DNA of 64,000 bases. Origin: Alphaproteobacteria bacterium. Lineage in GTDB: Bacteria; Pseudomonadota; Alphaproteobacteria; JAAXGF01. The stretch lies in NCBI GenBank assembly GCA_963555825.3, contig CAUVXB020000002.1:2720001-2784000 (forward strand). The letters are read 5' to 3'. Numbering within the stretch: position 1 is the first letter of the stretch; the number at the start of each line of letters is the position of its first letter. Of the stretch, positions 1 to 5,092 are shown in pieces. Under the pieces are notes generated by a model. That model saw only the letters and a list, made by a program, of their open reading frames with translations, ran no database searches and was not told the DNA's origin. Position numbers and translations under genes: made by a program.

Positions 1-717
1 CACCGACGGCCGGGCGTCGAGGTCGTCCTCGGCCGCCGCGCCGAGGCCCAAGAGCACGTCGGCGTCGATCGCGCCGTGGCGCGCGCGCACCGTCTTGACC
101 GCCGGGCGGAGCCGCGCCGCGACGTCGCGGCTGACGCGTTCGAGATCGTCGGCGTCCATCAGATCGGTCTTGTTGAGCACCACCATGTCGGCGCAGGCGA
201 GCTGGTCCTCGTAGAGCTCCTCCAAGGGCGCGTCATGGTCGAGCATCGGGTCGGCGGCGCGCTGGGCGGCGACGGCCGCCGGGTCGTCGGCGAAGCGGCC
301 CTCGGCGACGGCGGCGCAGTCGATCACCGTGATCACCCCGTCGACCGTCAGGCGGGTGCGGATCTCGGGCCAGTTGAAGGCCCGCACCAAGGGTTTCGGC
401 AACGCCAGGCCGGAGGTCTCGATGACGATGTGGTCGGGCTTGTCGTCGCGCGCCAGCAGCGCCTCGATGGTCGGCACGAAGTCGTCGGCGACGGTGCAGC
501 AGATGCAGCCGTTGGCGAGTTCGACGATGTCCTGGCAGCTCTCGTTGCCGCAGGCCTCGAGCACCTCGCCGTCGACGCCGAGGTCGCCGAACTCGTTGAT
601 GATCAGCGCCAGCTTCCTGCCGTTCGCGGTCGCCAACAGATGGCGGATCATGCTGGTCTTGCCGGCGCCGAGGAAGCCGGTGATTACCGTGGTGGGTATT
701 TTCGCGGTCGAGCTCAT
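1..717 (-). CDS. cobW: CobW cobalamin-biosynthesis G3E GTPase (3' end outside window)
   Basis: Manual translation from ATG 717: MSSTAKIPTTVITGFLGAGKT (Walker A), LIINEFG, ELANGCICCTV (CxCC), IVIETSGLALPKPL, VVLNKTDL. Start overlaps the cobU stop. Absent from the ORF track because it runs off the edge. Confidence 0.93.
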   Translation of the reverse strand, partial: MSSTAKIPTTVITGFLGAGKTSMIRHLLATANGRKLALIINEFGDLGVDGEVLEACGNESCQDIVELANGCICCTVADDFVPTIEALLARDDKPDHIVIETSGLALPKPLVRAFNWPEIRTRLTVDGVITVIDCAAVAEGRFADDPAAVAAQRAADPMLDHDAPLEELYEDQLACADMVVLNKTDLMDADDLERVSRDVAARLRPAVKTVRARHGAIDADVLLGLGAAAEDDLDARPSV

Positions 718-1277
718 GGGCGGGCCTCGGGTGACTTGAGGTGAAGCGGCAGGCCGGCCGCGATGAAGACGACCGATTGGGCGGCCACCGCGATGGCTTG
801 GTTGAGCCGCCCGGCGGCGTCGCGGAAGGCGCGCGCCAGCGCGTTGTCGGGCACGATGCCGAGGCCGACTTCGTTGGACACCATGACGACCGGGCCGGTG
901 AGGGTGGGCAGCGCATCGCTCAACGCCGCGGTCTCGGCGTCGACGTCGCGCCCGGCGTCGATCAGGTTGGCGAGCCAGAGCGTCAGACAGTCGACCAGGA
1001 CGGCGCGGTCGGCGGCGGCGTTGTCGCGCAGCCCGGCGACCAGCTCGAGCGGCGCCTCGACGGTGTGCCAGCGGTTGACGCGGCGCGCGCGGTGATCGGC
1101 GATGCGGGCGGCCATCTCGGCGTCGCGCGCCTCGGCCGTCGCCAGATAGACGCAGGCGCCATCGACGCAGGCGCCCGGCTGGCTCTCGACCAGGCGCTCG
1201 GCGAACCGGCTCTTGCCTGAACGGGCGCCGCCCAACACGAGCGTCAGGCGCGGCAGCGCGGCGGTGGTCGCGGACAT
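714..1277 (-). CDS. cobU: Bifunctional adenosylcobinamide kinase / cobinamide-phosphate guanylyltransferase (CobU/CobP)
   Basis: LVLGGARSGKSRFAE, RIADHRARR..W.T.E, VLVDCLTLWL, VSNEVGLGIVP, RAFRDAAGRLNQ. GGAGG RBS before ATG 1277. Confidence 0.95.
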   Translation of the reverse strand: MSATTAALPRLTLVLGGARSGKSRFAERLVESQPGACVDGACVYLATAEARDAEMAARIADHRARRVNRWHTVEAPLELVAGLRDNAAADRAVLVDCLTLWLANLIDAGRDVDAETAALSDALPTLTGPVVMVSNEVGLGIVPDNALARAFRDAAGRLNQAIAVAAQSVVFIAAGLPLHLKSPEARP

Positions 1278-1314
1278 GGGCCGATCCTCCCTCCGAGGAC
1301 ATCGTTGCGTCGGC

Positions 1315-1470
1315 CTGAGGAAGTGTCCTGGCTCGGGGTCGTCGGCTCCGGCGCCTTCCCAACGCTTGCGCATCAGTGGCCGCTGCCGGAGCCTCGCCGC
1401 TTACAGTTGCGGGGGCAGCGCCGGCCTGGCCCCTTTCGGGGCGTCACCGGCTTCCTTCCATTCGGGCGCG
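1315..1470 (-). promoter_or_regulatory. Cobalamin (AdoCbl) riboswitch
   Basis: Minus strand has, in order, GGAAGCCGGTG, CTGCCCCCGCAACTGTAA (1418-1401), GCCACTG (1380-1374), GGGAAGG (1360-1354) and B12-box AGCCAGGA (1333-1326), directly upstream of cobU-cobW. Confidence 0.93.
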
Positions 1471-1525
1471 GCACTCTAGCACGCGGCGTTCCGCCGGCAC
1501 CAGCGCGGCGTTGCGGAATCGGCGG

Positions 1526-1581
1526 GTGTTTCGGCTTGAAAATCGATGCGGCTCGAAAGCACGACGCGGACCCGAATGTCT
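1526..1581. repeat. Left arm of a foldback repeat (inverted relative to the 3' parts of 2999-3080 and 5009-5092)
   Basis: Reverse complement ...GCTTTCGAGCCGCATCGATTTTCAAGCCGAAACAC matches GCTTTCGAGCCGCATCGAATTTCAAACCGAAAC ending at 3080. Confidence 0.85.
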
Positions 1582-1599
1582 TGTGTGGATGGCTCCCGC

Positions 1600-1844
1600 G
1601 TTGCAAGGACTTTTTTCGGCGTAGCGACCTAGTCAGGTACAGTCTTGTGTCCGGCCTGTTGATGCGGTTTTGTTGAACCGCTGGCCCTGATGGTATCCGT
1701 GGATCGGGTCCCTATCTGCTTAGCGGGCTCGAACACCCAGGACGTTCGTCGGGTTGTCCCGATCCCCGGTCTGACCGGTTCGCCATCACGTCTCGTCGTC
1801 CTTGCAATCGTCGAAAGGCGTTGTGCCTTCGAGCGATCAATTCG
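1600..1844 (-). ncRNA. Putative bridge/seekRNA region of the IS1111 element
   Basis: Non-coding region downstream of tnp with segments matching the element's circle junction (1643-1650, 1661-1668) and the target site (1715-1722, 1740-1748). RNA ends are unknown. Confidence 0.65.
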
Positions 1845-2879
1845 TCATGCGGTCCTCTCAGTTGCGGGTCGGTGAGCGCGGTAGGCCTCGCCACGGGTCA
1901 TGATGACCCAGGCGATCCGCGCGGCCTTGTTGGCCATGGCCACGGCGACCAGCTTGTTGGGCTTGCTTACCAGCAAGTTGGTGATCCAGGGGTGAACCTC
2001 GGGCTTGCGCCGTGCCGATTGAAGCTGTGATGTCATGCCGATCACCAGCAGACGGCGAAGATAGCGGTCCGCCATCTTGGAGATGCGTCCCATGCGATCC
2101 TTGCCGGCGCTGGAATCGGCCTTGGGCGTTAGCCCGAGCGAGGCGGCAAACTGGCGAGCCGATGTGAACCGGTGCGGATCGGTGACCGAGGCTGCCAGCG
2201 CCGAGGCGGTGATGTAACCAATCCCCGGAATGGTCGCGAGCCGTTTGGCCAGGTCGTTGCCGCGGAACCAGGTCTTGATCTCGCCCTCGATCATGGCGAC
2301 CCGGGCTTGCAACTCGCGGATCTGCTCGGCCAGGGCAATGACGATCTTGCATGCCAGCGGGGGAATGTCCGGCACCACTCCTTCGACAAGCTGATCGACG
2401 AGCCTCAGCGCGTGATGAATGCCTTTGGCCAGCACGATGCCCAACTCGGCCAGCTGGGACCGGATCATGTTGACCAGCTGGGTGCGCTGGCCGACCAGCA
2501 GATCCCGTGTTCGGTGGAGCGCCAGGACCGATTGCTGCTCGGCCGACTTGATCGCGACGAACCGCATCGTGGGGCGCGTCACCGCCTCGCAGATCGCCTC
2601 CGCATCGGCGGCGTCGGTCTTGCCGCGCTTGACGTATGGTTTGACGTAGATCGGTGGCATCAATTTCACCTCGTGCCCCAATGCCTGGAGCTCGCGGGAC
2701 CAGAAGTGGCTCGTGCCGCACGCCTCGATACCGATCAGACACGGTTCCAGCTTGCCGAAGAACGGCATCATCTGGCGCCGGCGCAACGATCGGCGGACGA
2801 TGACCTTGCCGGTGCTGTCAATGCCGTGGACTTGGAAAACGTTCTTGGCCAGATCGAGGCCGACGGTAGTAACTTTCAT
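1845..2879 (-). CDS. IS110-family (DEDD) transposase/recombinase
   Basis: MKVTTVGLDLAKNVFQVHG, IGIEACG, KTDAADAEAI, TIPGIG..TA, LGLTP..DSSAGK, A.ANK.ARIAW. GAGGAG RBS. Confidence 0.95.
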   Translation of the reverse strand: MKVTTVGLDLAKNVFQVHGIDSTGKVIVRRSLRRRQMMPFFGKLEPCLIGIEACGTSHFWSRELQALGHEVKLMPPIYVKPYVKRGKTDAADAEAICEAVTRPTMRFVAIKSAEQQSVLALHRTRDLLVGQRTQLVNMIRSQLAELGIVLAKGIHHALRLVDQLVEGVVPDIPPLACKIVIALAEQIRELQARVAMIEGEIKTWFRGNDLAKRLATIPGIGYITASALAASVTDPHRFTSARQFAASLGLTPKADSSAGKDRMGRISKMADRYLRRLLVIGMTSQLQSARRKPEVHPWITNLLVSKPNKLVAVAMANKAARIAWVIMTRGEAYRAHRPATERTA

Positions 2880-2998
2880 GGCGGATAGCTCCTCTTGCTC
2901 GTGGTTGATAACAACCACCACTTCGGCACCTCGGTGCCGGGAGCGGGAGCCATCCACCCCATCTGTAATTGGTTAATCCCGGACCCAATGGCCGTACC

Positions 2999-3080
2999 GA
3001 ACGATGACCGCTTGCGGGCGATAAGCCGGCATACGGGCCCGCTTCAGGCTTTCGAGCCGCATCGAATTTCAAACCGAAAC
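2999..3080 (+). repeat. 82-bp repeat, copy 1 (right arm of the foldback element)
   Basis: 70/82 identical, ungapped (counted by hand), to 5009-5090. Its 3' part is the inverted repeat of 1526-1581. Confidence 0.88.
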
Positions 3081-3215
3081 AACGCCGTTAACGTCGGCTT
3101 TTCAGCGGATCATGTCTGCTTTGCGCCCCACAGTAGACCTTGGCGCGCGGTCATCGACACAGTCGCCCCCGACCCGGAGCGGCCTATTGCAGATCCCTGC
3201 TATCGGCCGGCAGTA

Positions 3216-3602
3216 TCATCCCGCATGGCAAACCGCCTCGATATTGTAACCGTCGGGATCAAGCAAGAACGCTGCATAGTAGTGTGGATGATAATGGGTG
3301 CGAAGTTTCGGCGCTCCATTGTCGATTCCGTCGGCGGCCAAACCAGCGGCGAAGAATGCGTCGACATCCGCCCGCGAAGCAGCATTGAAAGCGACGTGGA
3401 CGCGCGGTGTAATGGGAATGCCTTCGGACAGCCAGAAATCACCGCCCGGATCGGCGCTTTTGCCCTGTCCTTCGTGAACGCCAAAGCTGATCGCGTTAGG
3501 ACTGTTCTTACACAGAACATAACCGAGTGCCGCCAAGGTTTTTGAGTAAAATGCCTTACTTTTTTCGATGTCACTGACGGTGATTCCCATATGGTCGATC
3601 AT
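3216..3602 (-). CDS. VOC/glyoxalase family protein
   Basis: MIDHMGITVSDIEKSKAFY, HVAFNA, GIDNGAPKLR.HYHPHYYAAFLLDPDGYNIEAVCH. Confidence 0.92.
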   Translation of the reverse strand: MIDHMGITVSDIEKSKAFYSKTLAALGYVLCKNSPNAISFGVHEGQGKSADPGGDFWLSEGIPITPRVHVAFNAASRADVDAFFAAGLAADGIDNGAPKLRTHYHPHYYAAFLLDPDGYNIEAVCHAG

Positions 3603-3644
3603 CGATTGCCCTCATAAATCGAGAAGTTTCTGTAGCTTGTCGGG

Positions 3645-3756
3645 ATCGTCCTACGGCGCGCGCGCCGTGCAGCACCAGGCCGTTGACCGCATGGGCCAGC
3701 GCGAAGCCCGGGTCGGCCTCGACCGCCCCCTTGAGGCCCGGCATGACCGCCGTCAT
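3645..3756 (-). pseudogene. Short fragment resembling a TPR-protein N-terminus
   Basis: ATG immediately after the ADH stop reads LKGAVEADPGFALAHA, then loses resemblance to any recognisable protein. Confidence 0.3.
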
Positions 3757-3757
3757 C

Positions 3758-4852
3758 TTACGGCACGATGGCGGCGCGCAGCACCGAGCGGTCGGCCGCG
3801 CGGGCAAACGCTTCGTCCATCTGGTCGAGCGAAAACTTCGAATCGACGATCGCCGCGAACGGAAACCGCTCGCGGTTGCTCATCACGAAGTCCAGTGCCT
3901 GGATCAGATGGCGCGGATGATAGTTGTGGACGCCCATGATAGTGATCCAGCCGCGCAGGATGTCGTTGCCGTCGAGCGTGAACCTGGCGCCCGGGTTGAC
4001 GAGACCGCCAATCACGTAGCGGCCGCCGATGCGCAGCATGCGGATGCCGAGCGGCACGGCGTCCGGATGGCCACAGACCTCGATGCCGACGTCCGCGCCG
4101 TCGGGCGGGCACTCGGCGCGGACGGCGGCGACCAGATCGTCTTCGCCCATGGCGCCGATGTCGAAGGTGACGTCGGCGCCGAACTTGCGGGCGATGGCCA
4201 AGCGGTCGGCCACCGCATCCAGACCGATGACACGGCGCGCGCCACGCGCCTTGGCTATGGCGCAGCCGTACAGACCGAGCAACCCGAGTCCCTGCACGAC
4301 GACCGTATCACCGACATCGATGCCGGCCGCCTCGGTGACCGAGATCATGGTGGCGACCCCGCAATTGAGCGGCGTCGCCTCCTCGTCCGAGATTTCGTCG
4401 GGGAGTTTGAGGATACCCGTCCCCGGCAAGATGTAGCAGTAGTCGGCAAAACCGCCGAGGAAATGCGGGTCGTCCTCGACCAGGTCGTGGCCGTACTTGC
4501 GAAGTCCCGGGGATTTCTGCGGCATGTCGTGAACGTCGCGGTAATAGGACGCGCCATGATGGAAAAACTCCGTCCACGTGACCCGGTCACCGACCGCCAG
4601 CCCGTCGCCGCGCATGTCGTGGACGATGTTCTCACCCAACTGATCGATCACGCCGACGATTTCGTGTCCGAGGATCCCTGGACATGGATTGGGGCGGTGT
4701 CCCTGATAGGAATGAATGTCGGAACGGCAGATCGTCGACATGGTGATACGAACGAGCACTTCATCGGGCGTGACGTCACGTACCGGGTATTCGCGGATCA
4801 CGAATGGCGTGTTCGGTGCGTCGTAAACGACGGCACGACCTGTCTTCGTCAT
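3758..4852 (-). CDS. Zinc-dependent medium-chain alcohol dehydrogenase
   Basis: TICRSDIH, GHEIVG, PLNCGVAT (catalytic Zn ligands C/H/C). Rossmann VVQGLGLLG. Confidence 0.92.
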   Translation of the reverse strand: MTKTGRAVVYDAPNTPFVIREYPVRDVTPDEVLVRITMSTICRSDIHSYQGHRPNPCPGILGHEIVGVIDQLGENIVHDMRGDGLAVGDRVTWTEFFHHGASYYRDVHDMPQKSPGLRKYGHDLVEDDPHFLGGFADYCYILPGTGILKLPDEISDEEATPLNCGVATMISVTEAAGIDVGDTVVVQGLGLLGLYGCAIAKARGARRVIGLDAVADRLAIARKFGADVTFDIGAMGEDDLVAAVRAECPPDGADVGIEVCGHPDAVPLGIRMLRIGGRYVIGGLVNPGARFTLDGNDILRGWITIMGVHNYHPRHLIQALDFVMSNRERFPFAAIVDSKFSLDQMDEAFARAADRSVLRAAIVP

Positions 4853-5008
4853 GATGCCGGTATTTCCCTAGTAACCAACGGGCCCACGGTGACAATACCC
4901 AGTCCACACCGTGATTGTAAGATTTCCCCCGCCGGTGCCGTCAGGCGCCCCAGTTTCAATGATCGGTGCATTTGGCAAGCCCATTCACGTTTATCGATGA
5001 CCGCGCGA

Positions 5009-5092
5009 GAACGATGACCGCTTGCCGACGATGAGCCGACATACGGCGCCGCTTCGGGCTTTCGAGCGACGTCGAATTTCAAACCGGGACAC
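5009..5092 (+). repeat. 82-bp repeat, copy 2; outer right end of the foldback-bounded insert
   Basis: Direct repeat of 2999-3080. Ends CGAATTTCAAACCGGGACAC, inverted to GTGTTTCGGCTTGAAAATCG at 1526. Confidence 0.88.

Follow-up and report, generated by a model that had tools for sequence, protein, structure and literature searches.

The recombinases of IS110 and IS1111 insertion sequences (ISs) are guided by RNA. In ISEc11, an 82-nt seekRNA co-purifies with the transposase, can be reprogrammed and works in trans (PMC11187229). We studied a 64,000-nt stretch of an alphaproteobacterial genome (GenBank assembly GCA_963555825.3, contig CAUVXB020000002.1, positions 2,720,001 to 2,784,000), hereafter the window, in which an earlier note had proposed an IS1111 element carrying a guide RNA. 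Positions 1582-2964 very probably represent an intact, recently mobile IS1111-group IS whose 3' non-coding region (NCR) is predicted from sequence comparison to encode, in the sense of the transposase gene, a seek or bridge RNA (core 1772-1633) with two guide loops. Coordinates without a contig name are window positions, and the features described lie on the minus strand.

The element resembles ISEc11 in its type of transposase (41% identity), its subterminal inverted repeats (sTIRs), its long NCR downstream of the transposase gene (tnp) and a match of our covariance model R1 (58.5 bits). In both, the match to the top strand lies 5' of that to the bottom strand, and the two overlap at the insertion point (PMC11187229). 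ISEc11 differs in its core (AA), its sTIR (ATGAACGCATCCC), its target and its host, and the window element is known from its sequence alone. The ISEc11 paper stresses target matches (PMC11187229), while a second loop matching both IS ends is mapped here too; the donor-loop layout that we propose may already be contained in the supplement of PMC11187229 or in Extended Data Fig. 10 of PMC11208160.

Three other systems offer useful comparisons. IS621 has an RNA with two internal loops, in each of which a hairpin stands between two guides, one for either DNA strand, and it has a crossover CT on one strand, equivalent to AG here, and a repeated extragenic target motif; its RNA, in contrast, lies in the left end upstream of the gene, the order of its guides is reversed, its sTIRs measure only 2-3 bp and the two transposases match in their C-terminal half only (PMC11208160). 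IS4321 has the same 7-nt and 3-nt extensions beyond its sTIRs, creates no target duplication, inserts at the tip of another element's terminal repeat (compare copies c3 and c4 below) and carries an R1 match (E 4.5e-8) with guides that match its flanks at the same positions, but its transposase is 35% identical, its target is another one and it resides on enterobacterial plasmids. Finally, ISPpu9 of Pseudomonas putida, with its ssr9 module, shares an AG crossover of which one copy comes from the target and one from the IS, repeated extragenic insertion sites and extra 3' RNA modules bounded by end-like boxes (PMC12288879). The extra modules found here differ in being 94-296-nt tandem arrays, and they belong to a sister lineage (B), not to that of the window element (A).

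An intact element of the IS1111 group

Five full-length copies in the genome, 99-100% identical and with different flanks, together with an end layout that recurs in 78 homologous elements, delimit an IS of 1383 bp; the bounds previously given (1579 and 2964) lay within 1-3 nt of the true ends. The other copies are c3 (C2:2558326), c4 (C2:2178963), c5 (C2:1573108) and C2:3616754, the last with the same flanks as the window copy. We count four rather than five independent insertions, because window 1-3914, IS included, is duplicated in inverted orientation near the end of contig C2 (G000:C2:3619717-3615804, 100% identity, about 10 kb from the contig end). A further pair of matches suggests that this 3.9-kb repeat continues leftwards beyond the window start; the inversion and duplication may be genuine or may result from the assembly.

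The element has the traits listed as defining for IS1111 in PMC11187229 and PMC11208160. Its gene (1845-2879) encodes a transposase of 344 aa, within the usual length of about 330-350 aa, with the expected pair of domains (PF01548, DEDD_Tnp_IS110, 1.1e-16; PF02371, Transposase_20, 7.5e-23) and a near full-length match to NCBIfam NF033542, 'IS110 family RNA-guided transposase' (325 bits for a cut-off of 140); its C-terminal half matches the transposase structures of ISCro4 and IS621. The sTIRs, of 15 bp where the group has 7-17 bp, are set in from both ends: read in element sense, 7 nt (AG+ATGGG) precede the left repeat (GTGGATGGCTCCCGC, 2943-2957), and 3 nt (ACA) follow the right one (1585-1599). 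The non-coding part is longer 3' of the gene (263 nt, 1582-1844) than upstream of it (85 nt, 2880-2964). Insertion is site-specific and free of target-site duplication, only a dinucleotide being repeated, and AAGC-(A/G)G-ACAT is common to the four independent sites in the genome and to 52 distinct external sites. This is an intact, recently mobile and ordinary member of the IS1111 group.

For comparison we confirmed 527 relatives, retained the best 80 (61-92% protein identity) and added 14 elements of the genome itself. From these 94, 13 were set aside with one sTIR missing by regular expression and three (L035, L077 and B_2) were dropped as mis-parsed, which left 78; lineages D (without a left end) and E (with different sTIRs) were inspected and excluded from the counts. 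The alphaproteobacterial homologues end in the right sTIR followed by ACA or AGA and begin with AG, ATGGG or ATGAG and the left sTIR, and the sister lineages B (crossover TG) and C (crossover TA) of the genome have the same 5+3 extensions.

A structured RNA with two loops

The minus-strand fold of the NCR beats 200 of 200 shuffles (minimum free energy z = -3.3). We aligned the final 200 nt of 62 distinct elements; for this alignment (A1) RNAalifold finds a structure of 33 pairs, in which 98.3% of cells are paired and 12 pairs are changed on both sides. Not one of 500 column shuffles reached the observed percentage of pairing, the number of pairs and cells changed on both sides, or the covariation score, and two of the 500 reached the count of further pair types; when partners were slid by 1-3 columns, pairing fell to 28-41%. 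G-U pairs are frequent (40 at one pair, for example) and fit the transposase-sense strand only, hence our assignment of the RNA to that strand.

The core of the RNA (1633-1772, 151.6 bits against R1) consists of a target-binding loop followed by a donor-binding loop. In the former, a basal stem (1759-1768 with 1698-1707; helices 1-2, five of eight pairs changed on both sides) closes an internal loop whose sides flank an apical hairpin (1725-1738; helix 4, 100% paired, three of four pairs compensatory). In the latter, a composite hairpin (1651-1687, helices 5-6), in which 1664-1668 pairs with 1677-1681, stands between two single-stranded segments.

R1 also recognises the 3' NCRs of three distant elements, each time on the strand of the gene: ISEc11 (58.5 bits, E 2.6e-17), a Klebsiella plasmid IS (66.6 bits) and IS4321 (28.2 bits). 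The NCR thus contains a structured RNA homologous to one for which a seekRNA has been shown experimentally. Domains, sTIRs, covarying structure and the R1 match to ISEc11 together bear out the identification, made in the earlier note, of an IS1111-group element with a 3' guide RNA.

Two structural candidates were rejected. An RNA read from the plus strand, on which two mismatches in 1740-1748 would become G-T wobbles, is ruled out by covarying helices whose G-U pairs occur on the transposase-sense strand only. Pairing of (A/G)CGG with CUG(U/C) was considered, by eye, as a basal stem of the donor loop; RNAalifold places these bases in the stem of the target loop, and the covariation is inconsistent. 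Just 3' of the core, the stretch 1611-1632 can pair with the right sTIR (helix 7, A1 columns 151-161 with 202-212: 8 pairs, 98.6% paired, changed on one side only), and it is also similar to the left sTIR.

Guides that follow the target

The strings on which the first proposal was built stand where it had placed them: TCTTGTGT (1643-1650), GATGCGGT (1661-1668), TCTGCTTA (1715-1722), GGACGTTCG (1740-1748), AACGTCGGCTT (3090-3100) and ATGTCTGCTT (3112-3121). How far would such matches arise by chance? Among 5000 random 261-nt windows of the genome, an 8/8 match occurred in 0.1-0.2% (0.1% for the 8-mer of the right end), and a 7/8 match, as seen for the right-donor and right-target guides then proposed, in about 9-10% each; the best NCR match to the left half of the site that the window copy occupies, 5/8, is at chance level. 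Given these frequencies, the match at 1643-1650 alone exceeds chance in the single sequence. It is the comparison with other copies and homologues that upholds 1740-1748 and 1715-1722, and of the four guides put forward three therefore stand, 1661-1668 as right-donor guide being given up.

The 5' side of the target loop (1748-1740, RNA CGAACGUCC) is the right-target guide. In sequence it is the right flank reverse-complemented, and it is complementary to the top strand of (G)ACATTCG, the right half of the target. On the 3' side (1722-1715, RNA UAAGCAGA), the left-target guide has the sense of the left flank followed by the dinucleotide and the first IS base (TAAGC-AG-A) and would pair with the bottom strand; TCTGCTTA fits the junction of copy c4 at 8/8 and that of c3 at 7/8. 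We compared guides and flanks over 63 distinct sites and permuted the guides among elements 10000 times. For the left-target guide, 300 of 378 positions agreed with the flank of the same element, where permuted guides gave 205 (sd 8); for the right-target guide it was 328 of 441, where they gave 242 (sd 7). Neither value was reached in any of the 10000 permutations. The covariation persists with external loci only, and with one element per guide pair (n=33).

Where the flanks themselves vary, most guide positions match at a rate of 0.82-0.95, and right-flank position +4 at 0.69. Individual elements illustrate this: TCAAC flanks go with a UCAAC guide (L054-L057), TTAGC with UUAGC (L070, L081, L093), and an ACCTTC flank with its complement in the guide (L069, L080, L092). 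An rU opposite dG at +3 of the right half is an example of a tolerated mismatch. The two target guides around a small hairpin, as first proposed, are thus confirmed by homologues whose guides follow their flanks.

Guides that follow the IS ends

The donor loop has the same layout. Its 3' side (1650-1643, RNA ACACAAGA), the left-donor guide, has the sense of the right IS end with the dinucleotide and the next base, ACACA-AG-A, at 8/8. In all 78 elements it follows the right IS end, be it ACA or AGA, and its earlier reading as a donor guide holds.

For the right-donor guide we propose the 5' side of the loop (1696-1688, RNA AUACCAUCA), which is complementary to (G)ATGG of the left IS end and holds, in the donor loop, the position that the right guide holds in the target loop. 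CCAUC is invariant in every lineage with the left end AG-ATG. The segment reads CUCCAUC in 21/21 elements with the left end ATGAG, (U/A)ACCAU in 45/45 with AG-ATGGG, and CGCAUU in lineages B and C; the homologous segments, compared by eye, are complementary to ATGTAAT in ISEc11 (7/7), to ATGGAAT in L113 (7/7), an IS of Klebsiella, and to ATGAG in IS4321 (5/5). The second loop thus matches both IS ends, its right-donor segment following the left end in lineages A, B and C, ISEc11, IS4321 and L113.

The crossover dinucleotide

In element sense the junctions of the four insertions read (left flank)-AG-ATGGGGTGG... and ...CCACACA-(A/G)G-ACATT.... Recurrence of this layout in homologues and in sister lineages B and C identifies the core as AG, or CT on the plus strand; the circle junction first proposed, with core TC, was off by one base. 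The right-junction dinucleotide (1580-1581) is AG in the window copy and GG in c3 and c5, and its left-junction counterpart occupies 2963-2964. All elements of the AG lineage but one have AG on the left, while on the right GG is found at 37 and AG at 18 of the 62 sites. GG is commoner where the right-target guide has C opposite the crossover base (32 GG to 11 AG); otherwise the counts are 5 and 7. Asymmetry of the same type occurs in IS4321 (TA left, TT right) and in L113 (TA left, TG right). One possibility is that the right junction keeps the base of the target and the left junction that of the donor.

By analogy with ISEc11 and IS621, the IS would excise as a circle in which ...CCACACA abuts AGATGGGG..., and a complex of transposase and RNA would pair the circle junction with the second loop and a chromosomal AAAGC-(A/G)G-ACAT(TC) site with the first. 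Strands would then be exchanged at the AG dinucleotide, with no target duplication. The abutted ends may also create a promoter: the hexamer TTGCAA (1601-1606), 17 nt before the last IS bases and formed by nearly invariant columns of A1, could serve as -35 box to a -10 box in CA-AG-AT, as judged by eye from A1 and related ISs. When 1400-3150 was scanned for promoters and terminators, no sigma-70-like site came up, and with it no promoter for the RNA; a single terminator-like site lies beyond the IS, at the expected frequency.

Weighing the evidence

Several observations count against an RNA-guided element as described here. The occupied site, ATTAC-AG-ACATTCG in element sense, fits the element's own guides poorly: its right half (ACATTCG, 1573-1579) matches at 6/7, with a C:A mismatch, and its left half (ATTAC, 2965-2969) at 1/5, where positions -1 to -4 match in 90-95% of the 62-site set. 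Each of the four independent copies occupies a site other than the one that its own right-target guide fits best, a sibling allele always fitting equally well or better. An identical two-base core in donor and target does not predict the left/right asymmetry of the crossover. The right-donor pairing in lineage A is short (five contiguous pairs) and interrupted; discontiguous pairing of the right-donor guide is also reported for IS621 (PMC11208160). The covariation counts contain related sequences and are not counts of independent events. An Rfam scan of 1200-3400, at E up to 10, gave the NCR no match and returned a cobalamin riboswitch and chance-level matches only. The contigs of four public runs contain no joint of right to left end, which says little as contigs drop rare forms, and no empty site was seen in them; stretches that they leave uncovered carry no information either way. 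Run X15, a metatranscriptome library, covers the IS far deeper than its flanks without showing transcription, and the case for an RNA is built on sequence comparison.

Could the window copy be a dead end, which arrived off target or by rearrangement and whose guide, mutated to C at 1744, is no longer useful? We regard this as possible, if unlikely. The poor fit of both halves of its site is what such a history would leave. Position 1744 is C in the window copy and its duplicate and U in c3, c4 and c5, and in the contigs of all four public runs the other base, the U allele, accounts for 86-100% of depth; moreover, with up to one mismatch allowed, the 14-mer consensus is found at a single genomic site and the prediction from the C variant at none. 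On the other hand, the open reading frame (ORF) is intact, the ends are identical and the transposase differs from its siblings at few positions. The two flanks belong together, since their parts follow each other in the same order, across the insertion point, in an unoccupied paralogous repeat (C1:381968). A seekRNA works in trans in experiments, and a sibling RNA can still mobilise the window copy. The U of the siblings at 1744 gives a perfect 7/7 match to ACATTCG, as in the guide allele of c3, and the window copy was either placed by a sibling RNA in trans or had its guide mutated afterwards.

Crosswise sites of this kind are also seen in other lineages. Lineage-C copies sit at each other's guide-matched sites, and a lineage-B copy (B_6, C2:1505028) lies at CTTG-TG-ACCCAGG, a site that fits lineage-D guides. 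A trans-acting RNA, later mutation or gene conversion would each explain the crosswise sites of lineage A, whose four copies cannot decide among them.

The segment 1661-1668 (RNA ACCGCAUC), originally taken for the right-donor guide, would have to be a hairpin strand that opens to pair with the left IS end. It is complementary to GATGGGGT at 7/8, its lineage-B equivalent fits that lineage's own left end TGATGCGG at 7/8 by eye, and a C-to-U change in many homologues still leaves a G-U pair with the DNA. A 7/8 match for this segment, however, is found by chance in about 9.5% of random windows, and 1664-1668 pairs with 1677-1681 through compensatory changes (GC 32, AU 21 and GU 9 at one pair). 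Its other three bases take at least 10 forms (AUC, GUC, ACC, GCA, AGC, GCG and others) against a constant left end, AGATG, and in ISEc11 the counterpart of 1661-1668 has no complementarity to the left end, that of 1688-1696 fitting it at 7/7. A guide at 1661-1668 is accordingly very unlikely, and 1688-1696 appears the better candidate on sequence grounds.

Least credible, to the point that we give it almost no weight, is the idea that the guide-like segments act as DNA, internal copies of ends or target bound by the transposase, in an RNA structure that is incidental: the left-target and left-donor segments do have the sense of the DNA they resemble and can be read as duplicated end or target DNA, lineage-B tandem arrays begin exactly at such a segment, and the case for an RNA is made by sequence comparison, but the right-target and right-donor segments are reverse complements, double changes and one-stranded G-U pairs preserve the helices on either side of the guides, and the homologous region of ISEc11 is an RNA that co-purifies with the transposase and is active in trans (PMC11187229).

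Target motif and genomic repeats

The target consensus of the lineage is AAAGC-(A/G)G-ACAT(T)(C), or (GA)ATGT-C(T/C)-GCTTT on the plus strand, and it agrees with the motif A(C/T)GTCNGCTT recognised earlier. The two similar sites near the IS (3090-3100 and 3112-3121) are real, the second being an unoccupied near-consensus site that reads AAAGC-AG-ACAT in element sense. In run X8, a single contig connects 3111 with 1576 through a shared ATGTCT (3112-3117), at a depth of 14 and with 37 letters on the shorter side; this is a weak hint of an IS right end at that site or a close paralogue.

The further claim that the element is programmed against a local palindromic repeat family goes too far, as the motif is short and common to unrelated repeats and unique DNA. 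The 10-mer GCNGACATTC is not clearly enriched in the genome, with 78 matches against 9-349 for five composition-matched controls. The motif occurs at the tips or edges of several repeat families. It adjoins the end of a repeat of about 105 nt (...GAGTCCGGGTGTA), one member of which lies in the window; ten copies were examined, and in three of them a lineage-C IS occupies TA-GCC, at a distance of eleven bases from the position used by lineage A. It is also found in short palindromes, and at the tip of 71 ends resembling terminal repeats (TYACACAGNCTG...AGC-RG-AC), with c3 among them and c4 at a degenerate relative.

This high-copy end family, (CAGCAAACGTTC or CCATCGACGTTT)TYACACAGNCTGG..., stands at 71 places (for example G000:C1:339669 and C2:139001) and mostly continues as AGC-(A/G)G-AC, the left half and crossover of the lineage-A target, an arrangement that recalls IS4321/IS5075 at Tn21-type terminal repeats. 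In the window, the IS is flanked by a 33-nt sequence (GCTTTCGAGCCGCATCGAWTTTCAARCCGAAAC) in two inverted copies (1529-1560 and 3049-3081) and lies within a composite of short repeats that has some 10-15 partial relatives in the genome, and a second member of this composite is found 2 kb to the right (about 4849-5082).

RNA modules, fragments and neighbouring features

R1 matches 38 places in the genome, 23 of them near full score. Lineage-B copies are followed downstream by tandem arrays of right-end RNA modules, with periods of 296 (3.3 copies), 138, 134 and 94 nt, which include end fragments of 24-28 nt (L024 1802-3593, that is G000:C2:2097664-2099455; L030 1043-1634; G000:C1:2233731-2234734) and resemble the ssr9 modules of ISPpu9. 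One type of array unit begins exactly after the crossover TG of the left-target guide, and others begin at nearby TG sites. A wider picture would be that lineages A, B, C and D and the guide alleles within a lineage form a shared pool of trans-acting seekRNAs, the lineages all aiming for one short motif, found at the tips of other mobile repeats, and for neighbouring positions in it, and that the DNA of the left-target guide is itself a half-target, recombination at which spawns transposase-free, spreading arrays of RNA modules; we offer it as a doubtful conjecture.

Lineage A has also left fragments. Three 3' pieces, each comprising the end of tnp and the RNA region (C1:946282-946463, C1:1263168-1263349 and C1:1714309-1714490), are about 94-98% identical to the window element as far as position 1718 or so and more diverged beyond; this break coincides with the left-target guide, and the pieces have an insertion of about 42 nt relative to R1. 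A left-end fragment of 443 bp lies at C1:941228-941669. In three of five lineage-C copies (C2:527849, C2:1067099 and C2:2452902), a 1177-bp insert follows immediately on the transposase stop; it has inverted ATACCAGTGAGC ends, is 100% identical and in opposite orientation in two copies, and is probably another small IS inserted at TTA.

The cobalamin riboswitch (1321-1457, minus strand; RF00174, 78.6 bits, E 3.7e-19) leads into cobalamin-synthesis-like ORFs (1-1275). The IS, oriented likewise, is situated some 125 nt upstream, and may split the riboswitch from its promoter or feed transcription into it.

Significance

RNA-guided IS110/IS1111 recombinases are under development as programmable tools for genome insertion, and the IS1111 branch is less mapped than IS621. 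The guide RNA described here is of a known kind, in a typical active IS1111 member, whose relatives give an unusually clear read-out of the RNA letters that choose the site. The 62 distinct RNAs and 63 distinct sites of this alphaproteobacterial clade amount to a natural experiment, from which the places of all four guides and the positions tolerant of mismatches can be read and in which the asymmetry of the crossover dinucleotide comes to light. As regards the genome, this is an ordinary finding, the sign of an active IS family whose insertions lie at the tips of other repeats.

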